IMG/VR virus record: IMGVR_UViG_3300030380_002303
Location: 1 to 53,013 of that record
Length of the DNA stretch: 53,013 nucleotides
Strand: one strand, 5' to 3'
Source of the DNA: a virus
Lineage: Duplodnaviria; Caudoviricetes
Part shown: positions 22,636-45,500 of the stretch, in pieces
Layout: every line of letters begins with the position of its first letter
Position numbering within the stretch: position 1 is the stretch's first letter
The notes under the pieces: model-generated
Database searches by the model: none
The model's input: only the letters and a program-made list of their open reading frames with translations
What the model was told of the DNA's origin: nothing
Translations under genes and position numbers: made by a program

Positions 22636-22700
22636 ATTATACCATTTTTTTTTATTTGTAAACACATTTTGTGTTGACATATTGGTTTAAATGTATAAAA
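22636..22700. promoter_or_regulatory. Back-to-back promoters sharing one operator
   Basis: AACACATTTTGTGTT at 22661-22675; rightward TTGACA at 22674-22679; leftward TTTACA at 22662-22657 and TGGTATAAT at 22644-22636. Confidence 0.8.
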
Positions 22701-22719: not shown

Positions 22720-22768
22720 GTGGCAACTTAAAGAATTTCGCCTTAACAATTGTTCCTTAGGTTGCCAC
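22720..22768 (+). promoter_or_regulatory. Long stem-loop in the 5' UTR of the recombination operon
   Basis: GTGGCAACTTAAAGAA pairs with TTCCTTAGGTTGCCAC (16 positions, one G-U, one mismatch). Confidence 0.6.
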
Positions 22769-22786: not shown

Positions 22787-23551
22787 ATGAAGATGAAAAG
22801 CAACAATCCATTTTTTAATCACGATATTTTTTGGTTATCTCATAGTTCTATATCTACATGGATTAGTTCACCATCAAAATTTATTGCTCAAAAATTGTTT
22901 AAAATAGATGATTATGGTTCTGCATCAATGCATAGAGGAACAGCATCTGAATATGCATTACATAAAAAATATGAAGAAGGCATATTTGATATACAACATG
23001 CAGAAAATAAATTTACTGAATTATGTAATTTTGGAGGTATAGATTGGGGAGATGCCACAAGATATAAAGAAAATATACAATTAAAAGAATATGGGAATAT
23101 TCTTAACAAAAACTTTAATTATAAAAATTTAGAAACATATCAAGAAAAAATTGAAATACAATTTGATGAATTACCAATACCAATTATTGGCTATATAGAT
23201 TTTGTATTTGATGATGTTGTTGTAGATTTAAAAACAACTGCAAGAATGCCATCAAAAGCAACCGAGTCCAATAAAAGACAAATGGCAATTTATAAAATGC
23301 ATTACAAAGATAAAAAATCAGAAGTGTTTTATGCAACACCAAAAGATTTTAAAGTTTTTAAATTGGATAATTTAGAGATTTACCAAGAACAAATAAAACA
23401 GATTGCTCTTGGCATAATGAAATTCTTATCTATCAGTGATGATAAAGAAGAATTAGCTTCCATGGTTTACCCAGATGTAGATGATTGGAGGTGGTCAGAA
23501 GAAATGATAAATGAAGTAAAACAAAAAGTTCAAGCATGGAGGAATATATGA
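22787..23551 (+). CDS. PD-(D/E)xK exonuclease (PDDEXK_1-like)
   Basis: LSHSSI, RGTASE, GYIDF..VVDLKT, RQMAIY. Confidence 0.88.
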   Translation: MKMKSNNPFFNHDIFWLSHSSISTWISSPSKFIAQKLFKIDDYGSASMHRGTASEYALHKKYEEGIFDIQHAENKFTELCNFGGIDWGDATRYKENIQLKEYGNILNKNFNYKNLETYQEKIEIQFDELPIPIIGYIDFVFDDVVVDLKTTARMPSKATESNKRQMAIYKMHYKDKKSEVFYATPKDFKVFKLDNLEIYQEQIKQIALGIMKFLSISDDKEELASMVYPDVDDWRWSEEMINEVKQKVQAWRNI

Positions 23552-24117
23552 AGAACGAAGAAAAATTAGCAAAAGACCAAACTATTATTGAAGAAGATGT
23601 AAAAGATGATGCAGATGTTATTGGTATGCCATCAACATTAAATTTATCTCAAGCAATGAATTTGTTTCAACAAAAAAATATTCAAGCAGTAAAAGATAAA
23701 AACAATCCGTTTTTTAAATCTACATATGCTGATTTAACATCTATTATAAATGCAGTAAATCAAGGTGCAGAATATGGATTAGCTTTTTCACAAAGTGTCC
23801 ATTATGAAAGAGTTATTTTAGATAGAAAAAGGGAAGATACACATAAAGATGGAACTGTATCTGTAACAACTGGTCAAGCAATTGAAAGAGATATATATGT
23901 TGAAACATTTGTTTGGCATAAAAGTGATGTTCACAAAGAAGATATACTTACTTGTAGAGTTCCTGTTCTTATAAAAGGTACAGACAAGGATGACCCACAA
24001 AAAATGGGTTCTGCCATCACATATGCAAAAAGATATGGTCTACAAGCATTATTTGGACTCGGTCAAGATGATGATGGAAATTTAGCAAGTGGAAAGGGCA
24101 AAAAAGATGAACAGTAA
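23548..24117 (+). CDS. erf: ERF-family single-strand annealing protein
   Basis: KNNPFFKSTYADL, QKMGSAITYAKRYGLQALFGL..DDDGN; GGAGG RBS favours the start at 23548. Confidence 0.9.
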   Translation: MKNEEKLAKDQTIIEEDVKDDADVIGMPSTLNLSQAMNLFQQKNIQAVKDKNNPFFKSTYADLTSIINAVNQGAEYGLAFSQSVHYERVILDRKREDTHKDGTVSVTTGQAIERDIYVETFVWHKSDVHKEDILTCRVPVLIKGTDKDDPQKMGSAITYAKRYGLQALFGLGQDDDGNLASGKGKKDEQ

Positions 24118-24544
24118 AACATATGATAATACCAATAGTGGTGTTTTATGGTCAATACCGAAAGATAATGAAAATAAACCAGAAATGTCATTGATACAAC
24201 AAGGTAAATTAAACATAAATGGTAATGAAATGAGAATTGTTGGCATAAAAAGATTAAATAAAGATGGTCAAGAAATGGTTGGATTATATCGTGAAATTGG
24301 CACAATAAAAGAAAATGCTAAAAAATTTTCAGACAAAGACCCAGATGCTAAAGGTGTTGTTAATAATATTGTTGATGATGGTGGATTTACTTGTTCTGCA
24401 TGGAAAAGTGTATCTGAAAAAAACAATCATTATGTAAGTCTTAAAATAAGAGCATTTGATGAAAGACCAGAACAACAAGAAACCACAGAATCAGAAGATA
24501 AAGAAATAGACACGTCTAATTTAGATGATGATATACCATTTTAA
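24107..24544 (+). CDS. Single-stranded DNA binding-like protein
   Basis: YDNTNSGVLW..SAW..YVSLKI with an acidic tail ending DDDIPF; follows exonuclease and erf. Confidence 0.75.
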   Translation: MNSKTYDNTNSGVLWSIPKDNENKPEMSLIQQGKLNINGNEMRIVGIKRLNKDGQEMVGLYREIGTIKENAKKFSDKDPDAKGVVNNIVDDGGFTCSAWKSVSEKNNHYVSLKIRAFDERPEQQETTESEDKEIDTSNLDDDIPF

Positions 24545-24555
24545 AGGAGGAAATT

Positions 24556-24867
24556 ATGCAGATAAAAGACTTAATTTTAAGTGAAGTGCAATCACACCCA
24601 CGAAGTACAAGGTCTGATGCACCAATAGGTTCTGAAAATCTTTCACAAGAAGAAAATGTAAAAAGATATTTAGAACAAATGAACATGATAACACCTTATT
24701 ATGCCTTAAATGTCTATGGTGCATTTAGATTAAGTGCCATTATTTTTAATTTAAGAAAAGAAGGTTTAGATATAATTACTGAATTAGTTACATCAAAAGG
24801 TAAAACATTTGCCTGTTACATGTTAAAGGCAAGATATGAAGAATTACAAACACAAGCCAATTCGTAA
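24556..24867 (+). CDS. Winged-helix protein (HTH_39-like)
   Basis: ITPYYALNVYGAFRLSAIIFNLRKEGLDIIT..FACY. Confidence 0.7.
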   Translation: MQIKDLILSEVQSHPRSTRSDAPIGSENLSQEENVKRYLEQMNMITPYYALNVYGAFRLSAIIFNLRKEGLDIITELVTSKGKTFACYMLKARYEELQTQANS

Positions 24868-25285
24868 TAAAAATTTTATGATATTTGTAGCGAATAAACC
24901 ATGTTCGTTACAAAATCATTCTTCTTATAGATGTAGTGGTGGTGTACAAGCACATCATCTTTTAAAACCATGGGACGGATATCGTGGTATGGGATTAAAA
25001 GCAGGTGATAATAATTGTATGCCACTATGTCAAAGGCATCATGCTCATTTACATGACAAACATGGCAATGAGGACACATTTTGGAGAATATTTAAATTAC
25101 CAGAAGATTATGGTCGTATTGTATCTAAATCTTTATGGCAATCTTTTAATATAGGAGTATCTATGCAAGAAAAATTAGAAAAATTTAGAGAATTAATAAC
25201 TGAAATTGACATATCACAATATAAACAAAGAGAATATGTAATCATTGTAAATTCTATTTATAAAAGTATTTTTGAGGATAAATAA
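24836..25285 (+). CDS. DUF968-like Cys/His (HNH-type) protein
   Basis: PC..C..AHHL..GMGLKAGD..PLCQRHHAHLH. Confidence 0.75.
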   Translation: MKNYKHKPIRNKNFMIFVANKPCSLQNHSSYRCSGGVQAHHLLKPWDGYRGMGLKAGDNNCMPLCQRHHAHLHDKHGNEDTFWRIFKLPEDYGRIVSKSLWQSFNIGVSMQEKLEKFRELITEIDISQYKQREYVIIVNSIYKSIFEDK

Positions 25286-25617
25286 TGCAAGAAATTATTT
25301 CAGAAGAAGATATCCATAAAGCTATGGATTGGTTACAAAAGAGTGCTAATGAATGTGCAAAGGATAAAGCCACATTAGATTATTTAAATGCCTATACAAA
25401 ACCATGTAAGGCTTTATTGATGAAAAAATTTAGTCATTTACCAATTTCAGCACAAACTAGAGAAGCAGAAGCACATGAAGATTATATTAAACATATTGAA
25501 TCAGTAAAAATTGCATCTGAAAAACATTATAAAAATCAATACTTTAGAGAAACTGCACTTGCAAAAATTGAGATATGGAGGACTCAAAATGCAAATTTTC
25601 GTGCAATGAAAATATAA
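25285..25617 (+). CDS. Hypothetical helical protein
   Basis: 110 aa, REAEA..IEIWRT pattern; TAATG-coupled. Confidence 0.7.
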   Translation: MQEIISEEDIHKAMDWLQKSANECAKDKATLDYLNAYTKPCKALLMKKFSHLPISAQTREAEAHEDYIKHIESVKIASEKHYKNQYFRETALAKIEIWRTQNANFRAMKI

Positions 25618-25650
25618 TAAAAAAAACTTTTATAAATATAAAAAAAAGAG

Positions 25651-25715
25651 TTGACCTATCTCCTACCTATGTAATTATATAATTATCATTAATTCAAATT
25701 GGGAGAAAACAAATG
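25651..25715 (+). promoter_or_regulatory. Early-type promoter lacking the operator, with the shared leader
   Basis: A-tract, TTGACC at 25651, AT-rich -10 region, TTGGGAGAAAACAAATG at 25699-25715. Confidence 0.6.
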
Positions 25716-25934
25716 ATAATAGAACTTTACGAAGACGTTAAACAATTAGATAAAGCTAAACATAATTTAATTTTAGCTCTAAATAATCATAATTCAAATA
25801 CAACTAAAGAAGATATCAAAAATGCTTTTGATATTATTGCTTATATGATTTCTACAAAAGAATCAGAAATTACAAAGATACAAGATGAACATAATAGACG
25901 TTCATTAGAAGATTTATTAGGGAGGAAAATCTAA
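25713..25934 (+). CDS. Hypothetical early protein
   Basis: 73 aa with the shared leader. Confidence 0.75.
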   Translation: MIIELYEDVKQLDKAKHNLILALNNHNSNTTKEDIKNAFDIIAYMISTKESEITKIQDEHNRRSLEDLLGRKI

Positions 25935-26152
25935 TGAGTATGTTTAATTATTTAGAAGAACAAGGCAATAAATTTCTTAACAAAAAAGTTCCTAATATAG
26001 TTGCTAATTCTGATTGTATTGAGGAAGCAATTGATAAATCATATAAATTATATCAATCACAATATAGTGGTTGTCCTAATTTAAGTCATTGTGGCTTTGA
26101 TGAAAAAATTACAGAAATATGGAATGAATATTGGGAGAATTACAATGAATAA
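25934..26152 (+). CDS. Hypothetical early protein
   Basis: 72 aa, GGGAGG RBS, coupled. Confidence 0.7.
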   Translation: MSMFNYLEEQGNKFLNKKVPNIVANSDCIEEAIDKSYKLYQSQYSGCPNLSHCGFDEKITEIWNEYWENYNE

Positions 26153-27404
26153 GCCAATTTTATGTTCAGAAATATTATCTGCACTTACACAACCAAAAAG
26201 AGCAATAGCCCTCTATCAAGGAGGGCGAACTGCAGATACTATGATAAGACAAAAACAAACTGAATTTGTTAATGCCAAGAAATTTGTAATAGATGCAAAT
26301 ATGATAGAACATGCTTGGAATATGTCATTGTCAAAACCATCTGTTTTATTAGAAATCTTTGAAGATGCAAAAATACCATTTGATAATTTATGGATAGAAT
26401 GGAATGAGCATATAAGACAGGATATTATGAAGAATTATTTTGAAAAAAATAATATGAAATATAAAAATCACAATGAATATCCAGATAATGTCGGTTATCA
26501 TATTTATAAACATAAAAATAAATTAGATGAAGAATATTTTATTTATGAAAATTGGTGGTTTACAGGTGGTAAATTTAAACATTTATCTATGCAAGAAACT
26601 GGGTTGAAAGATAAATTCTTTACTCCAACTATGGCTTTTACAATTACTGATTTCATTACAAATTGGCAAGATGAGCTTGCCAGAATTGATATATTAGATG
26701 AATTGCCAAAAACAGGAAGATGTAAAGATGAAGATGAATTAAAAATACAAGCATTTTCAATAGGTACATCTTTGTTAGGTAGAAGTTATAGTTTTAAATA
26801 TATACCTAAAAAATTTATTTTGAAACTAGAAGAAAAACAAAGACTTGCTGATAATGATGAATATGTAAAATACATTAAGAAAATAATTAAATATGATAAT
26901 AATCACGAATTTAATTGTTTTAAAGAATTATGTTACACATTAGCTTTAGCACAAAGTGCATCAATGCATTGGTCAATACCAGAGTGGAAATTTAAAGAAG
27001 GTTATACTCCTGAAGAAATCGCTCAACATCAAGGACATGCCATGATTACTATGGAGGGCGATGCAAGATTTTTAATTTCATTATTTGCACTCATGAATCA
27101 AAATATCCATGATAAAACTTTAATTGAACCTAGTAATAAAATTATACATACAAAATTGGGTAAAAGAGTGCCTAGAAATGATTATTACGTTCTAAATGTA
27201 AATATATCAGATTACAAAGTAAGAAAGATTTATAAATCTAAATTTACAGGCAAAGGTAATCCTAAAAGAGAACATGACAGGAGAGGTCATTTCAGACATT
27301 TAACAGATAATCAAGGTAATCTGAAAAAGAAGATATGGATTAAACATCAAACTGTCGGCAATAAAGAATTAGGCAGAATAGATAAAGATTATAAATTAAC
27401 TTAA
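26145..27404 (+). CDS. Hypothetical protein with C-terminal HxRRGHxR motif
   Basis: REHDRRGHFR..KKIWIKHQTVG; start at 26145 after TGGGAGAATTACA. Confidence 0.75.
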   Translation: MNKPILCSEILSALTQPKRAIALYQGGRTADTMIRQKQTEFVNAKKFVIDANMIEHAWNMSLSKPSVLLEIFEDAKIPFDNLWIEWNEHIRQDIMKNYFEKNNMKYKNHNEYPDNVGYHIYKHKNKLDEEYFIYENWWFTGGKFKHLSMQETGLKDKFFTPTMAFTITDFITNWQDELARIDILDELPKTGRCKDEDELKIQAFSIGTSLLGRSYSFKYIPKKFILKLEEKQRLADNDEYVKYIKKIIKYDNNHEFNCFKELCYTLALAQSASMHWSIPEWKFKEGYTPEEIAQHQGHAMITMEGDARFLISLFALMNQNIHDKTLIEPSNKIIHTKLGKRVPRNDYYVLNVNISDYKVRKIYKSKFTGKGNPKREHDRRGHFRHLTDNQGNLKKKIWIKHQTVGNKELGRIDKDYKLT

Positions 27405-27419
27405 AATAGTTAAAAAAAC

Positions 27420-27462
27420 TACACATTATGTGTTGACATATATGTATTTATAATTATATAAT
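27420..27462 (+). promoter_or_regulatory. Early promoter with operator
   Basis: TACACATTATGTGTT; TTGACA at 27433; TATAAT at 27457. Confidence 0.85.
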
Positions 27463-27492
27463 ATATATATAATGTTTTTAGGGAGAAAACGA

Positions 27493-27849
27493 ATGTTAAA
27501 AATAACTTTAAAATATATAGAAGAAGATAAAGGATATCCTTTAACAGATTGGGAAAAGGAATATTGTTATCAAAATATAACTTCAATTATGCAATATCGA
27601 AAAGAGATGGTGTATCAATCTATATCAGATATTTCAAAAGAATTAACTGGTTGTAGACATAGACTTGATATTGATAAATATACTCTTGTAGAATTACAAT
27701 CTATTCTTGATGATTATATTCAACAGAATAAAAAAATAAATCAAAGAATTGCAGACAAACAAGCTGAAAATTTTGTTAAGAATAAATTATTAGCAAAAAG
27801 TATTGGTGTTTCAATTGAGGATTTAATCAAATGGGAAGTGGCTTATTAA
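27493..27849 (+). CDS. Hypothetical early protein
   Basis: Start follows GGGAGAAAACGA. Confidence 0.75.
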   Translation: MLKITLKYIEEDKGYPLTDWEKEYCYQNITSIMQYRKEMVYQSISDISKELTGCRHRLDIDKYTLVELQSILDDYIQQNKKINQRIADKQAENFVKNKLLAKSIGVSIEDLIKWEVAY

Positions 27850-27894
27850 CCACTTCCCCTATAACCAAACGGAGGAATGTAAGGTTATTCCTCT
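27833..27894 (+). promoter_or_regulatory. Two tandem hairpins (terminator or processing site)
   Basis: GGGAAGTGG-8nt-CCACTTCCC and GAGGAAT-8nt-ATTCCTC. Confidence 0.55.
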
Positions 27895-27925
27895 TAAGTA
27901 TCATAAAATAAAAAAGGAGACAATT

Positions 27926-28828
27926 ATGTTAGATACTAAACTTTACGAAGAACAACTTGAGAAAATTAATTTTCAAGTGAATATTGAAGAAATAGATGGC
28001 ATACCTACAGATATGGCACAAAAGATTGTTAGAACTGATACCAATCAGCCATTAGGAATTGTTAAATCTAAATATAAGCCAATTAATCATAAAGAAGCAT
28101 TTTTAGGTGCCTTAATGCAAATGGATAAAGGCGGTGTATCTTTTAAAAATTCAGAAATCAAAATAGATGCATATGAAAATGGTGCTATGGCTAAAATGGA
28201 AGTCTTATTAAAAGACCATAACACAAAGATAGGTGAACATGATTTATCTTTAAAATTCATTGCAAGAAATTCTTACAATGGCAGATGGAAATTTCAATCA
28301 TTCTTTGGTTGGTTAAATCATGTTTGTTTCAATACATTAGTTACTGGTCAAAAATTAGCATATACATCAAATAGACATACAAAATCTTTTGATATTAGTA
28401 TGGCTAATAATAAGATTTCAAATGCAATTGAAGCAGTTACAAAAGAAACTGATAGATTTCAAAAATGGTGGGATACACCTGTTGAAGATAATGCAATTAA
28501 AGATATGTTTACAAAGACAATTGCAAAACAAAAATTATCAAAAGGTAGTCAACTAGCAGGTATCAATCAAACAAATAAGAAACAATTAGCAGTTCTTATG
28601 GGTTTATATGATGAAGAAGTAACACAAATACATGGTAGAGGTGATTATGGCAGAAATAATGCTAAAGGCTCTCTATGGTGTGCTTATCAATCAGCAACAG
28701 CATGGTCTACTCATCTTAATGATATTGTTAAAGATGAAACAAAAAAATACATTGTTGAAGTTGATAGACAAAATTCAGTATCAGATATGATAAATTCTGA
28801 TGCTTGGAAGCAATTAGAAACTGTTTAG
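27926..28828 (+). CDS. DUF932-family protein
   Basis: VRTDTNQPLGIV..YKPINH, RNSYNG, VCFNTL..RHT, SLWCAYQSATAW. Confidence 0.85.
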   Translation: MLDTKLYEEQLEKINFQVNIEEIDGIPTDMAQKIVRTDTNQPLGIVKSKYKPINHKEAFLGALMQMDKGGVSFKNSEIKIDAYENGAMAKMEVLLKDHNTKIGEHDLSLKFIARNSYNGRWKFQSFFGWLNHVCFNTLVTGQKLAYTSNRHTKSFDISMANNKISNAIEAVTKETDRFQKWWDTPVEDNAIKDMFTKTIAKQKLSKGSQLAGINQTNKKQLAVLMGLYDEEVTQIHGRGDYGRNNAKGSLWCAYQSATAWSTHLNDIVKDETKKYIVEVDRQNSVSDMINSDAWKQLETV

Positions 28829-28837
28829 GAGGAAAAT

Positions 28838-29113
28838 ATGAGAATATTGCTTTTAATTATAATTATGGGAATTGCATCTTGCAGTTCCCCTAAACATAAA
28901 ACAGTAACTTTAGGTTCTGAAGTGCCACAAGGTAAAGCTGAATTGATACATGAAAAACATATGTTTCAAATGTCTAGGCAAGAAACAATAAATGCCATCA
29001 ATGATTGTCATTCTGCAAATTTAAGAGCAATCATTTATCATAGTAGATTAAAAGTAACTGGTAGATTTATACCAATACCTGTATCTATTCAATGTGCGCC
29101 TAAAATTCAATAA
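28838..29113 (+). CDS. Predicted lipoprotein
   Basis: MRILLLIIIMGIAS-C lipobox. Confidence 0.75.
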   Translation: MRILLLIIIMGIASCSSPKHKTVTLGSEVPQGKAELIHEKHMFQMSRQETINAINDCHSANLRAIIYHSRLKVTGRFIPIPVSIQCAPKIQ

Positions 29114-29120
29114 TAAGGAG

Positions 29121-29146
29121 AGGGAGAAACTTTAAAATTTCTCCCT
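29121..29146 (+). terminator. Hairpin, probable terminator
   Basis: AGGGAGAAA-8nt-TTTCTCCCT directly after the lipoprotein stop. Confidence 0.55.
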
Positions 29147-29239
29147 TAATTATGCAGATTCTAAATTATTTAATTAATTAAGATTCATAACTAGAATTTT
29201 ATATTAAAATAAAAAAATTTATTTGTCCATATTTTTTTA

Positions 29240-29302
29240 GGACTGGCACTGAGTTCGATTTGGATTCCAGAAGCAGTTCGAATCCAATTCCAGACTGAGT
29301 CC
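29240..29302. other. GC-richer structured/repeated intergenic element
   Basis: Two AGTTCGA-N6-TTCCAGA units 23 bp apart; TTGGATTC/GAATCCAA stem; GGACT/AGTCC closing pair. Confidence 0.6.
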
Positions 29303-29328
29303 AACTAATAAAAAATAGTTTAAAAAAG

Positions 29329-29370
29329 AACACATTATGTGTTGACTTTTATAATTATAAATATTATAAT
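29329..29370 (+). promoter_or_regulatory. Early promoter with operator
   Basis: AACACATTATGTGTT; TTGACT-17bp-TATAAT. Confidence 0.9.
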
Positions 29371-29404
29371 ATATGTATAATCATTAAGAAAGGGAGAAAA
29401 CAAT

Positions 29405-29629
29405 ATGATTTATTCTTATGATGCAATTGATAAAATTGAAAATTTTTCTGATGAACAAGTAATACAATTTTATCATAATGCTTATGAAACATTCGTTTTT
29501 GCTTTAGGACATTCTAAAGGACAACGTAATGAATTTGCGAAGAATTTTTACAAAGAAGAACTCGCAAAAAGAGGTATTAAAAACATACCTGATAGAAAAG
29601 GTGTTTTTAATGGTAGTGGAACTTCTTAA
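29405..29629 (+). CDS. Hypothetical early protein
   Basis: 74 aa with its own promoter, shared leader and terminator. Confidence 0.8.
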   Translation: MIYSYDAIDKIENFSDEQVIQFYHNAYETFVFALGHSKGQRNEFAKNFYKEELAKRGIKNIPDRKGVFNGSGTS

Positions 29630-29645
29630 CAAACAGAATAAAATT

Positions 29646-29669
29646 GAGGGATTAATTTCCCTCTTTTTT
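29646..29669 (+). terminator. Intrinsic terminator
   Basis: GAGGGA-6nt-TCCCTC followed by TTTTTT. Confidence 0.8.
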
Positions 29670-29678
29670 ATATTTTTT

Positions 29679-29720
29679 AACACAATATGTGTTGACATTT
29701 AGAATTATAAATATTATAAT
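29679..29720 (+). promoter_or_regulatory. Early promoter with operator
   Basis: AACACAATATGTGTT; perfect TTGACA-17bp-TATAAT. Confidence 0.92.
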
Positions 29721-29752
29721 CTATATATAAAGATTTTCATGGGAGAAAACAA

Positions 29753-30193
29753 ATGACAATAAAAATAACAAAAAAAATAAACAAAATAAAAATTGATGAT
29801 ATACCATTAATTCAAACTGTTTTTGCAAAAAGATGGTATTGTGGAAAGTATGAATATCATAGTTTAGCAGGAGGAGCACCAGACAAATGCAAACCTATTG
29901 GAATATTTACAAGTCCAAAAAATAATAAACAATACATGATATTAAAAGGATTTGATAAAGGTTGCATGGTTAGATTTGCAACATATTATAATGTTGTTGA
30001 ATTACATTCTGAAATTCATACTAATGAGATTGAATATAATAAATTCAATAACCCATTGGAGAAATTACAATTTGATACAATTTTAGATGAAAATATTGGT
30101 TTGTATTCCCAAAAAAGATTTCCTAATCTTAATGAAATTAAATATTATTTTGAAAATACAGAACAATTTAAATTTTTTGAATCTAAATTATAA
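29753..30193 (+). CDS. Hypothetical early protein
   Basis: 146 aa with the shared leader. Confidence 0.8.
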   Translation: MTIKITKKINKIKIDDIPLIQTVFAKRWYCGKYEYHSLAGGAPDKCKPIGIFTSPKNNKQYMILKGFDKGCMVRFATYYNVVELHSEIHTNEIEYNKFNNPLEKLQFDTILDENIGLYSQKRFPNLNEIKYYFENTEQFKFFESKL

Positions 30194-30236
30194 ACACAAA
30201 ATGTGTTGACTTATTAACCAATTAATATAATATAAT
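30193..30236 (+). promoter_or_regulatory. Early promoter with operator
   Basis: AACACAAAATGTGTT; TTGACT at 30206; TAATAT/TATAAT at 30228-30236. Confidence 0.85.
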
Positions 30237-30262
30237 AATATAACGTTTTATGGGAGAAACAA

Positions 30263-30508
30263 ATGACACCACAAGAAAAAGAATATAATCAATATCTTAA
30301 AGATAACATTACACATTATCTTGTAAGTGAATTTCTAGGCAGAGGTCAATACAGAAAGACAAAATTTATCTCTTTTAACAAAGCAAAATGTTTTTATTTT
30401 TCTTTGAAAGAAGATAATCCTATTTGTCAATGTGCATTATATGGCATATCAGAGCCTAAAGACAAATTATATCCTATCAATGTATTGATGGAGAATTTAG
30501 ATGTATAA
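30263..30508 (+). CDS. Hypothetical early protein
   Basis: 81 aa with a TGGGAGAAACAAATG leader. Confidence 0.75.
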   Translation: MTPQEKEYNQYLKDNITHYLVSEFLGRGQYRKTKFISFNKAKCFYFSLKEDNPICQCALYGISEPKDKLYPINVLMENLDV

Positions 30509-30692
30509 ATTAGAATTATCAAAAGAAGAATTACATTGTATAATTATGGCAAATATGGATTATGCTGAAAAATTATGTACTCAACACAATGATAAACCAT
30601 TTGATGCTCAAAAAAGGTATGAATTGGTTGTTAATTTAGAAACAAAATTACAAGGTGTTTGGAATAAAGGAGATAAGATTGATGGAAAATAG
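30501..30692 (+). CDS. Hypothetical early protein
   Basis: 63 aa, GGAG RBS, overlaps the upstream stop. Confidence 0.7.
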   Translation: MYKLELSKEELHCIIMANMDYAEKLCTQHNDKPFDAQKRYELVVNLETKLQGVWNKGDKIDGK

Positions 30693-30846
30693 ATATTATG
30701 TTAAGATAAGATTATATGATAATTTACCAGATATGCCACAACATGGAAAATATTTACAATTTATGATTGAAGCAGATTCAGAAGAAGAAATAAAAATGAT
30801 GATTTCAACAAAGCATACTATAACATTGCTACAACTTGTTGATTAA
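30682..30846 (+). CDS. Hypothetical early protein
   Basis: AAGGAG RBS supports MENRYY start at 30682. Confidence 0.65.
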   Translation: MENRYYVKIRLYDNLPDMPQHGKYLQFMIEADSEEEIKMMISTKHTITLLQLVD

Positions 30847-30850
30847 AGAA

Positions 30851-30927
30851 TTGGGCTCCGTGGAAAGCATTTGTTTTCTCCCAACCCCACTATAAATAGG
30901 CATGCTAAGGTCGGAGATAGGTATGCC
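30851..30927 (+). ncRNA. Candidate regulatory small RNA antisense to the shared early-gene leader
   Basis: Non-coding, GC-richer than its surroundings, two stem-loops; 30868-30884 is the reverse complement of TTGGGAGAAAACAAATG. Confidence 0.45.
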
Positions 30928-31002
30928 ACCGTTAATAGAAATATCCAAATAAGAAAGAATATCCCCAAACACCTAAAGTTAAATATATAAAATCTTCGTT
31001 AT

Positions 31003-31485
31003 TCATGTATTTTTCTGTTTGTACAAATATAAAAGTAAAAATATAAAACCAATGATTGTTAATGTTAATAAACCAATAGCAAAACCATTTATGATTTTAT
31101 GTAATCTTTCTTTTCTTTTATAAAAATTTTCCTGTCTTTCTTTTCTTATTTTACCTTCCATAGCAAGTAATTCATTCCATGCTTGTGGTCCAAATGAAAG
31201 ACTTAAATATTGTTTTAATTCATATCTTTGTTGTTCTAATTTTTTTTTAGCGGCAAAAGCTTCAAGTGCTTGTTGTTCTATAGAACTTGCATACATAAGT
31301 TTTTTAAATAATGGTGGATTTTTTGCTTCTTTTTCTGCTTGGTCAACATCTGATACTGCACTCATCCATTTTCCAATTTGTGATGCCATCTGGTCTATAT
31401 CTTGACCAATTGCAAATCCTTGTTTTATGGTATTAAATGCTTTAGTGGCAACACCAATAGCACCTGCAATTGTTAATGGGTCCAT
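31003..31485 (-). CDS. Conserved membrane-anchored protein
   Basis: MDPLTI.. amphipathic N-terminus, coiled coil, C-terminal transmembrane helix. Confidence 0.75.
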   Translation of the reverse strand: MDPLTIAGAIGVATKAFNTIKQGFAIGQDIDQMASQIGKWMSAVSDVDQAEKEAKNPPLFKKLMYASSIEQQALEAFAAKKKLEQQRYELKQYLSLSFGPQAWNELLAMEGKIRKERQENFYKRKERLHKIINGFAIGLLTLTIIGFIFLLLYLYKQKNT

Positions 31486-42564: not shown

Positions 42565-45500
42565 CTATCTTGCATTACTAAATTTAAATGGCTGTTCGGC
42601 GAAAGCCAAATATAAGAATGTTCCACCACTACTATTATAAACTGCTTCTGTTGACCTAATTTTAAATCCTTGAGATAAAAAATCTACATTAATTGAAGGA
42701 CTTAAAGTTGAGCCATCTATTTCAACATGATTTCCATTAGCAGAAAGATATCTATCTACTGCATTAAATGTATTTCTTTTATTATCTAACATTTGCCACC
42801 CACCACTATCATTACTTCTTTTTAGCATAATGAAGGCCGGTCTAAATCCAAGATATGCATAGGGTCCGTCAGTTGAGCCGTTTCCCGTATAACTGCCAAC
42901 CGCCGAATATCCCTCTACGTTGGCAAAGCAATACATAACATAAGTTTTTGTGCTTTGATTTACTGTGCTATCTGTATTAATTGTAACAACACTACTTGTA
43001 GGTGCTGTATTATTAAATGAACCACTATTTGAGCTAAATGCATTTCCATCAAAATACAATTGACCAGTAAAACCACTTTGGTCTTGCCCTATAACCCAAT
43101 TTGGAACACTACCACCTGTTCTATTTTTTAAAATGACCATGCTTGGTGCTACATTTAATCCATGTCCTAATGTAGCTAAAGAACCAGTACCAGTATAAGT
43201 TATAATACTAAATCCAGATGTTTCGTTTGTTTGTGTAACACATAGAAGTGAACCATCAAAGTTTGTTGAGCCAAAAGATGTGTTAGTGTTTATTTGACCA
43301 CCCATGCCTGAATGATAATGACACCAATAGTATAAAGTTGGTGCTGAACTGGCTACAGTAATTATAATTTGTCTTGTTGTTGCACTATTAAATTCACTAA
43401 CATAATCACTTTCAGTTTTTGTTACTCCATCCAATTTGTAAACAACACCTGTTGAATATGTACTTCCACCACCATGAGAACCATTTGATGTTGTACTAAA
43501 TTTCATAGGATGTCCATCTACAGAACTATCAGATAAGTCAAACGTATATGTTCCAAGTTCTTGCAAATCTAAAGTAACTGCACTTTGAGCAAATGTTGCA
43601 TTATCTGCTGAATTTCTAAATCTATATTTGTTTCCCCCATCAGAAACAACGACAACTTTATATGTTTTGGCAGGTGTTGAGCCACCACACTTCCAAGTCC
43701 AAACAACAAAAGTTGTTCCATTATTATTATCTAATCCTCCTGATACTTGAATACCATTTGTTACAATCTTAGGATGAGTGTCATTTGCTTCTGCATCTGT
43801 AGTGTTTGTATGCAGATTTGGAAAATTATCACCATTTCTTCTTGAACTATCTATTAAAGTATGTTGAGTTACTTGACTTCTGCCCTTATTCCAACTCCAA
43901 TCTGGTGTAAATGTATTCAAAGCAATATTTCTATCGCTTGTACCATCACCAGTATATAAAAATGTATTAAAATGGTCATCGGCTTGTGTGTCTTGTGCAG
44001 GACTGATAGTTAAATCTGGTAAATTTTGAGAACTCAAAGCTAAAAAACCACTAGGAGGTTCATACTGAAATTTACCAATGCCGTTAGAATCCGTATTTCC
44101 TGCTGTAGTTTCATTACCTGCAAATGTATCATCTGAACCAAAATTAACATTCAATGTATTATTAGATGTTTGTCTTACAAAAGAAGGTGTCAATCTACCA
44201 GTAACACCTGTAAATGCCGCATTTGTTGTTGTTCCTGCTTCTATCTGTGCTTTAACTGTAGCAGAATTATCACTTGTTCCTTTATTAAACCAACTGCCTT
44301 GTTTACCAAACCATATAGCACCATTATCTACATCAAGAGCAACCATTACAACATGTCCGTCTGCTACAGTTCCTCCATAACCACTTGTGTAGTTACTATT
44401 ATTGACTAATTGTGCCGCACCACTGTTATCATTTGTAACAAGAACCCACTCATATTGGTCAACACCACCATCTTCATTTGCCATAATATATTTTTCAGTA
44501 TCAAATACACCCATTGCAAATCTATTTGAACTGCTTTGTCTTACTTCCCAATACCATTTTCCACTATTAACAGCAAAAGTTGCAGGTGTCCTCCCACTAT
44601 TACTACCACTTGTGATTATTGCTTTTAAATTACCTTCTGACAGTGCAGACGCACTTTGTTTTCCTCCAGCATTTAAAACACAGAAACTATTTTCAGGACT
44701 ATCTAATACAAAATCAGTTGATAAAATATTTGTTGTTTTTGTTAAATGATTGCCAGAACCAGATGCATCTGCAATTGTATTATTAGGTTGGTCTGTTCCA
44801 GAACCATATGGGTCTGTTCTTGAACTACCAGTTGTGTTTAAATCAGATGCATTAAAATCTAATCTAAATCCACCAGTGCCAAAATGAGTATTGCCATCTT
44901 CATAAAATTCTATCTGACCAACATGTACAGATTCAGATGTATTTGGTGTTATCACAACCCAATGATAAGTGAAAGCTGTTGTTGTAAAACTGCTAATAGT
45001 TTCTTCAGATGTAATAGTAGTATCTGCAAAATATTTAATTGCACCTCTTTCACCATTCGTGCTTATTAGATTGTCATTTACAGATGAAGAAGTAAATAAA
45101 AGAGTTCCATCTGTAGCATTAGATGGTGCTCCATTTTTACCATAAAGTTTAACTGTAAATGTACTTCCACCACTGCCAACAAATCCAAAATTAGTTGGAG
45201 AATACAAAATAAAACCTGTTACTGTTTTTGAACTTCCCCAATTTTTACCTATGTAACCTGTAGCTTGACTGCCAGTTGTTGCCGCACCACTAGCATATGC
45301 TTGAAATCTTGTGCCATTAAAAGCACCTGCTAATCCACCTTGACCTGTTAAATCACCAATAGCTGTTCCTGTGCCTTGTGCTATTAAAGATGGTTTGGTT
45401 TCATAATTTTTAGGAATCCAAACTCCGTCTTTCGTCTCACCAAAAGCTGTTGGGTCTAAAGCAAATCCATTTACATAACAAGCATAAGATGAATAACCTG

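Follow-up and report, generated by a model that had tools for sequence, protein, structure and literature searches.

The hairpin at 30899-30927 is not free-standing. It is helix P2 of a conserved element of 85 nt. We give about an even chance to the reading that this element is a compact, pseudoknotted RNA, likely the + strand 3' end of the last early operon, with an anti-leader function as the likeliest one and with its match to an early promoter as a lineage-specific trait. The analysis shows the promoter match and its absence from relatives, conservation of the element with covariation in its helices and pseudoknot, and leader complementarity. The transcribed strand and the whole of the function are what we infer; an anti-leader function is placed first because one invariant segment of the element runs antisense to the early operon leaders from the Shine-Dalgarno sequence to the AUG.

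The window analysed was a complete viral record of 53,013 bases with about 30% G+C. The early block occupies the + strand at 22787-30846, flanked by − strand blocks, and carries exonuclease-, Erf-, and SSB-like genes along with many small ORFs of unknown function. Proteins of the window were about 55% identical to those of CRP-901 (OQ401623.1), with no match at the DNA level. Phages with a gene layout like that of the window are described in PMC10149686. The group is one of abundant but uncultured marine phages. The region of the element had no DNA match among 50,697 phage records in near and distant mode, and a 673-aa neighbour protein used as query gave no relatives.

The palindrome ACACAnnnTGTGT overlaps the −35 TTGAC at six + strand promoters and had nine matches over the two strands of the window together, against 0.5 expected. 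It is absent from the promoter at 25651, which follows the upstream operon (22787-25617), and the description of this promoter as the only operator-less early one was confirmed. About 20 nt after each operator-bearing promoter the sequence reads GGGAGAAAAC(A/G)AATG. The leader spacer varies by lineage (…AAAACAAATG versus …AAAATTATG), and the leaders of the L134/L138 lineage read GGGAGAAAATTATG. The operator-like motif was also visible in L134, L138, L181, and L188, and in the L134-type homologue of the 25651 promoter the spacer has CAC-GAATT-GTG instead of ACACAnnnTGTGT. Coordinates of all features are collected in Table 1.

Table 1. Features of the element, its neighbouring genes, and the early promoters and leaders in the window.
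Feature	Position	Strand	Remarks
Whole conserved element, 85 nt	30848-30932	+	Covariance model R1 90.6 bits; 92-104 bits in the five other versions
P1' 5' arm UGGG	30852-30855	+	Pairs with 30886-30889 CCCA; RNAfold and RNAalifold
P1' 3' arm CCCA	30886-30889	+	RNAfold, RNAalifold, covariation counts
Pseudoknot 5' strand CUCCG	30856-30860	+	5' side of hairpin 1 internal loop; pairs with 30912-30916
P1b hairpin: GGAAAGC, loop AUUU, GUUUUCU	30862-30879	+	Arms 30862-30868/30873-30879; two G.U pairs in the window
Anti-leader, complement of TTGGGAGAAAACAAATG	30868-30884	+	Spans P1b loop, P1b 3' arm, and unpaired CCCAA of the internal loop
Hairpin 2 (P2)	30899-30927	+	Arms 30899-30905/30921-30927, loop 30906-30920; 7 pairs
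15-mer AGGTCGGAGATAGGT	30908-30922	+	30912-30916 is the pseudoknot 3' strand
54-aa early gene p54	30682-30846	+	Always precedes the element
24-aa ORF	30932-31006	−	Hydrophobic, MNNEDFIYLTLGVWGYSFLFGYFY; ATGA overlap with 160-aa gene stop; − strand operon end; conserved in L132-L135
Last early operon: operator, promoter, leader	30194-30262	+	Drives 81-, 63-, and 54-aa genes
Operator-bearing promoters	2920-2936, 22662-22678, 27421-27437, 29330-29346, 29680-29696, 30194-30210	+	ACACAnnnTGTGT fused to TTGAC
Operator-less promoter-like site	25651-25678	+	TTGACC, 16 nt, AATTAT, TG upstream; no operator motif
73-aa gene leader, Shine-Dalgarno and AUG	25699-25715	+	17-mer complementary to the element
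Promoter-side 15-mer ACCTATCTCCTACCT	25654-25668	+	15/15 in L131; missing in the L189, L190, and L191 promoter homologues

Relatives were gathered through the adjacent 160-aa gene, which gave 45 loci. In L134 and L137/L138 the stretch after this gene aligned with 30848-30932, the window's sequence that separates the 54-aa gene stop (30844-30846) from that of the − strand 24-aa ORF (30932-30934). A pattern scan of metagenomes added L181, L184/L186, L185/L188, and L183, the last identical to the window; three of its nine matches (L180, L182, and L187) were judged to be chance and dropped. The collection contained six distinct versions of the element, from the window, three viral contigs, and six metagenome contigs. 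Stricter and hairpin-2-only pattern scans of the viral contigs returned the same three contigs only. The covariance model R1 found one copy per whole record in G000, G001, and G002, no further copies in 54 loci (569 kb), and no element in the whole records of seven other relatives, five of them at least 90% complete. A pattern scan of genome contigs gave a single match, in L196, an archaeal MAG (R1 22.4 bits); it falls within a 327-aa ORF and was set aside as a chance match. The element was absent from L132, L133, and L135, the closest loci by the 160-aa protein (88-94% identity), where a different convergent gene abuts.

The presence of the element followed p54. All 12 loci with a p54 copy of at least 64% identity carried the element (tblastn; some of these loci overlap on the same contigs), and the 40% identical copy in L155 had no element. 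The − strand neighbour varied, being the 24-aa ORF in the window and L134 and a 60-aa ORF in L137, L181, and L184. The 24-aa ORF (30932-31006) was missing from an ORF scan at 40 aa, and the 160-aa protein is membrane-anchored. The last early operon would transcribe the element as its own 3' end.

Read from the + strand, the element would fold into three helices (P1', P1b, and P2) and a pseudoknot, in which the loop core of hairpin 2 pairs with the 5' side of the hairpin 1 internal loop. RNAalifold recovered P1', P1b, and P2 without guidance. P2 showed 100% of cells paired in the six versions, with one pair changed on both sides (U-A/C-G) and + strand G.U in every version. The P1' pair at alignment columns 8-46 appeared as G-C, U-A, and U.G, again with 100% of cells paired. 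The pseudoknot pairing was CUCCG/CGGAG in the window type, UCUUCAU/AUGAAGA in L134, and UCUCUAU/AUAGAGA in L137, and three of its six pairs changed on both sides. Over the whole model-based alignment 95.1% of 144 cells were paired and both-side changes occurred in 6 of 24 pairs, three in the pseudoknot and one in each other helix. As a control, the partners were slid by 1-3 columns, giving 37-59% paired cells and 0-1 both-side changes; none of 500 shuffles reached the observed covariation score. The P1b cells of L137 and L184 (two) counted as unpaired reflect a one-column register slip, and they pair by hand. Single-sequence folds were unremarkable on either strand and did not exceed shuffles in stability (z −0.6 to −1.4, with the pseudoknot unscored).

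By the general comparative criterion of compensatory changes the element is supported as a structured RNA, judged from six sequences of about three to four lineages, with each covariation resting on one or two events. Pairing within the molecule, in the pseudoknot, explains the variable letters of the 15-mer in the hairpin 2 loop; the rest of this 15-mer (AGG…AGAUA.GU) is conserved across the element family.

The segment UUUUCUCCCA was invariant in all six versions and is the complement of the Shine-Dalgarno region of the leaders; in the revised fold the bases CCCA(A/C)C within it do not pair. The window's anti-leader fitted the leader at 25699-25715 exactly and the leaders at 29740 and 3369 over 15-16 nt. 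In both complete genomes the longest complementarity elsewhere fell on promoter-proximal early leaders (in the window over 17, 16, and 15 nt, in G001 over 14 and 13 nt), and the early leaders matched by the element lie on the + strand. The sequence-only reading had named the leader at 25699 as the best target of hairpin 1. The exact match stood, with TTGGGAGAAAACAAATG at 25699-25715 (+) and 30868-30884 (−), but it is not specific to that promoter, as one mismatch separates it from the leaders at 29739 and 3367 and two from that at 27479.

The element follows the leader spacer of its lineage in the window type and in L134, where it reads GGGAGAAAATTATA on the corresponding strand and so follows that phage's own leaders. 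In L137 it reads GGGAGAAAAAAATG and fits the leaders more poorly, with two mismatches directly after GGGAGAAAA. Predicted net hybrid energies were −12.3 to −16.0 kcal/mol for the window leaders and −21.5 kcal/mol for G001, compared with a mean of −2.7 kcal/mol and a minimum of −11.5 kcal/mol in about 150 random windows; the leader hybrids of the window and G001 lie beyond almost all random windows. In the DNA covered, five of seven element-bearing loci had at least two promoter-leader cassettes. A cassette occurred in 2 of 43 loci without the element, one of which (L189) ends before the element position. The element and the GGGAGAAA-leader promoters occur together as one early module, and linkage by itself could account for part of this co-occurrence. 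The first early message of G001, a genome of the L134 type, carries UGAAGAC about 20 nt after its AUG (G001:C1, ~44212-44260), complementary to the 5' pseudoknot strand of this phage's own element; a 7-mer of this kind is within chance, and G002 showed nothing similar.

In the anti-leader reading, the last early operon would be transcribed from the + strand and its RNA would finish, directly after p54, with the element. UUUUCUCCCA and its lineage-specific extensions would pair with the Shine-Dalgarno-to-AUG leaders after each early promoter, and the RNA would damp translation of the genes that come first in these operons. The fold would be supplied by hairpin 2 and the pseudoknot, or these would gate access to the anti-leader. 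If the element is such an RNA, the early genes would be shut down at two levels, by a repressor at the operator promoters and by the RNA against the shared leader, and the regulator would sit at an operon 3' end in a pseudoknotted fold not represented in Rfam.

The element might instead be only a structure of the transcript end, acting as a stabiliser against 3' exonucleases or as a stop of an unconventional kind where the early and late operons converge, with its leader likeness due to a purine-rich Shine-Dalgarno-like arm. Its position, exactly between convergent operons in every version, is as such a role would have it, and a U-rich run follows hairpin 2 in L137 and L184. However, these U-runs are absent in the window and L181, and the three loci closest by late genes (L132, L133, and L135) join the same operons without the element, which is also lacking from the seven other whole records. 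Neither the invariant 10-nt arm opposite a variable partner nor the lineage-specific tracking of the leader spacer would be expected from an end structure, and we consider this alternative unlikely. An intrinsic terminator in particular was rejected, with no terminator-like site on either strand in 30780-31010 and a hairpin 2 loop of 15 nt, where the criterion asks for a G+C-rich stem, a loop of 3-8 nt, and then a U-run.

The sequence-only reading had centred on the likeness between the hairpin 2 loop and the spacer of the 25651 promoter, and all of its sequence statements on this match were verified. The arms GGCATGC (30899-30905) and GTATGCC (30921-30927) mostly enclose the 15-mer as it had described, except that the last two bases of the 15-mer already lie in the 3' arm. 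The reverse complement of 30908-30922, ACCTATCTCCGACCT, matches the promoter-side copy at 14 of 15 positions. That copy does overlap the −35 box, since it takes in the last three bases of TTGACC (25651-25656) and 12 spacer bases. At two mismatches or fewer these two sites were alone in the window, and two sites were seen in none of 100 shuffles. The 15-mer pair and the TTGGGAGAAAACAAATG pair are colinear, with start-to-start distances of 45 versus 38 nt and gaps of 30 versus 23 nt between the two blocks; the distances of 47 versus 40 nt given earlier contain the same 7-nt difference. The sequence between the blocks is unrelated, as had been stated, with an alignment score no better than 83% of 3000 shuffles.

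Estimates from shuffles differed with the setting. Genome-wide the match was weak, because a 14/15 match of any 15-mer from the 48-nt hairpin-2-plus-linker elsewhere in the window arose in 7.3% of 300 dinucleotide shuffles. In the colinear setting it was unusual: a match at most 100 nt upstream of any of 13 other GGGAGAAA sites, in the same orientation, arose in 6 of 11,428 shuffles, a test framed post hoc after the data had been seen. The match with its colinearity is unlikely to be pure chance in that setting.

The promoter match was then sought in relatives, where the gene before it and a common A-tract upstream identified the homologous promoter. Exact scans of viral contigs for both motifs gave 94 and 34 stretches with one match each, and the single relative was L131 (L068), which has 94% identity on the neighbouring 437-aa protein. 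L131 keeps the promoter 15-mer at 15/15 although nearby bases differ, and its contig stops short of the element; within this lineage the two loci were seen together in the window only. In L131 about 60 extra bases (L131:209-275) follow the 110-aa gene stop and precede the A-tract, with the 25651-type promoter itself and the 15-mer unaltered. The promoter 15-mer was found only in the window and L131. The homologous promoter of L189, L190 (G001), and L191 (G002) has the spacer TCACGAATTGTGTAACT.

Absence of the match from close relatives that retain both loci had been set beforehand as the refuting outcome. G001, a complete genome of 52.9 kb, and G002 are the relatives with both loci, and both lack the match. 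On this comparison, which covers relatives outside the window's own lineage, a conserved role for the match is refuted. The hairpin-2 loop 15-mers of L134 and L137 also had no second copy at two mismatches or fewer in the whole records G001, G002, and G003. The promoter match is thus specific to the window's lineage and not part of the mechanism of the element family; it may be a chance match, a neutral patch of shared sequence, a product of local selection, or a second site of pairing in this lineage. What looked like a striking intragenomic match would be explained mainly by an intramolecular pairing constraint that is visible only in relatives.

The idea that the element evolved from an inverted copy of the promoter runs contrary to the distribution, as the element occurs in six versions across several lineages and the promoter 15-mer only in the window and L131. 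As candidates, an inverted copy of a sigma-70 promoter was rejected on the count of promoter-like sites in 30780-31010 (none, where −35 and −10 hexamers 16-18 nt apart would be needed on the − strand) and on the unrelated region holding the −10 of 25651, and a contiguous promoter-plus-leader duplication on its unrelated middle part.

A bipartite guide had also been proposed. It fails as a property of the family, given the absence of the match in G001 and G002 with both loci present, and is open to the window lineage alone. There the loop would pair with ACCUAUCUCCUACCU on read-through RNA from the 22787-25617 operon, open the pseudoknot, and free the anti-leader for the leader 30 nt on; read-through transcripts would be repressed more than those initiated at 25651. 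The matched block 30908-30922 nearly coincides with the apical loop 30906-30920 and not with arbitrary flanks, and the blocks are colinear around unrelated sequence at the low chance frequency given above. Inclusion of the 15-mer improved the predicted hybrid from −16.0 to −20.1 kcal/mol, and no terminator-like site between 25617 and 25651 would block read-through. L131 conserves the promoter 15-mer amid differing bases, and this 15-mer fits the window's own loop best (14/15, compared with 13/15 for L181 and 11/15 for L134 and L137). However, transcription from 25651 is predicted to start downstream of the 15-mer, so only read-through RNA could carry it, the pseudoknot already accounts for the loop core, and the genome-wide chance frequency is appreciable at 7.3%. 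Such a guide is conceivable in this lineage, although we would not expect it. In a gated two-site version, the read-through 15-mer would mimic the pseudoknot partner and, by strand displacement, open the anti-leader that the pseudoknot otherwise closes, silencing the ribosome-binding site of that transcript. This version seems to us quite improbable; if it were true, the phage could distinguish read-through from promoter-initiated messages at the sole promoter that escapes the repressor.

As to the strand, the four helices contain 10 cells that are G.U on the + strand and would be A.C if the − strand were the RNA, with none in the reverse case. The RNAalifold consensus energy was −16.87 kcal/mol with a negative covariation term for the + strand, and −14.53 kcal/mol with a positive term for the − strand. 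The linkage of the element is also to the + strand p54 gene. From these comparisons the element is probably read from the + strand; this call is a lean and not proof, because the − strand fold has a few extra pairs, including its own G.U.

If the − strand were functional, the late-side operon would end in an RNA that copies the early leader, and here also the promoter-spacer block, as a decoy for the ribosome or for a translational repressor. The − strand reads GGGAGAAAACAAAUG, a complete initiation region, its operon ends at 30932, at the edge of the element, and some G.U pairs occur in its RNAalifold fold. Against this stand the A.C mismatches and poorer consensus values described above, the linkage to p54 with a − strand neighbour that differs between versions, and the short ORFs after the AUG, which differ in frame and length, with AUA in place of AUG in L134. 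We regard a − strand decoy as rather improbable. A small − strand ORF within the element was rejected as a candidate on the same differing frames and lengths and the missing AUG of L134.

The further proposal of a second protein-binding site, in which one protein would bind both 15-mers as double-stranded DNA and the hairpin would be incidental, is very improbable: the promoter copy does have a direct repeat ACCTAT-N5-ACCTAT of one helical turn next to the −35, but the element does not keep the second half-repeat (ACCTTA), G001-G003 have no second site, and the variable core of the 15-mer covaries with a same-strand partner 50 nt away in the hairpin 1 internal loop, which is a base-pairing constraint of the RNA type.

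Searches against known families gave no assignment. With 4227 Rfam models at gathering thresholds the whole window had no match, and ARAGORN found no tRNA or tmRNA gene in it. At E up to 10, the regions 30780-31000, 30840-30940, and L134:4540-4655 showed chance-level matches only, none of them to C4 (RF01695); those to snoRNAs, mir-4899, and freshwater-2 (Shine-Dalgarno tail only) were rejected. The SAM-II riboswitch (RF00521, SAM_alpha) resembles the element in length and pseudoknot topology, with a very weak full-length + strand match at 30850-30926. It was rejected at 10.7 bits against a gathering threshold of 36 and with no match in L134, and the element differs from it in having no downstream gene to control on either strand.

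In function the element would come closest to phage antisense RNAs that act on ribosome-binding sites, C4 above all. C4 recognises its target at two sites. Like C4 of P1/P7 (RF01695) and the CI RNA of P4, the element would be a small folded phage RNA from the system of a controlled transcription unit that pairs at a ribosome-binding region. According to PMC8198154, C4 antisense RNA is needed for full ant repression and has its binding site in the immI operon. The element differs from C4 in its position at an operon 3' end and not in a leader, in its bulge-to-loop pseudoknot, and in its candidate trans targets, which are the leaders of several operons. Membership in the C4 family was rejected, as the covariance model was unmatched; the leader complementarity is a likeness to C4 in possible working, not in family.

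P22 sar and lambda OOP are short phage antisense RNAs against the start regions of early or regulatory genes, made from the opposite strand of their target (cis-antisense). The element shares with them its complementarity to an early gene start, but it lies 0.6-28 kb from its candidate targets and has only 13-17 nt of complementarity. Bacterial regulatory RNAs derived from 3' UTRs are embedded at the 3' end of coding transcripts and have their seed in a conserved single-stranded or weakly paired stretch. The element is like them in its placement at the 3' end of a coding transcript and in its conserved seed of that kind, and differs in lacking a terminator hairpin and U-tail. The titles and abstract openings examined from the antisense literature on roseophages and pelagiphages named no such element.

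The p54 protein had only four clusters of relatives among 5.8 billion proteins. Its predicted fold is strand-strand-helix-strand (pLDDT 92.4), and the best Foldseek match had an E of 0.1. Its likeness to many small inhibitor folds of phages and to RNA polymerase epsilon/Gp2 stays below a meaningful level (Z 4.4-5.9). A role as RNA-binding protein was rejected, as the matches to eL20 (Z 5.9), RNA polymerase epsilon (Z 5.0), phage p56 (Z 4.5), and T7 Gp2 (Z 4.4) were all sub-threshold for a common arrangement.

The leader of the first early operon contains a strong hairpin at 22720-22768 on the + strand (GUGGCAAC…GUUGCCAC, −20.1 kcal/mol, z −3.85), and none of 200 shuffles was equally stable. 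This hairpin is nearly identical in L191 and L192, so its covariation is not readable. An A+T-rich spacer of 75-105 nt separates the p54 stop from the element in L134:4638-4715, L137:8755-8830, and L181:2060-2165 (− strand of each); the window and L185/L188 have no such spacer. It holds an inverted repeat GATATAATT…AATTATATC with a conserved loop, which in L181 reaches 15 bp with one U.G, and could belong to a larger RNA as an additional hairpin or serve a separate start as its −10-like box.
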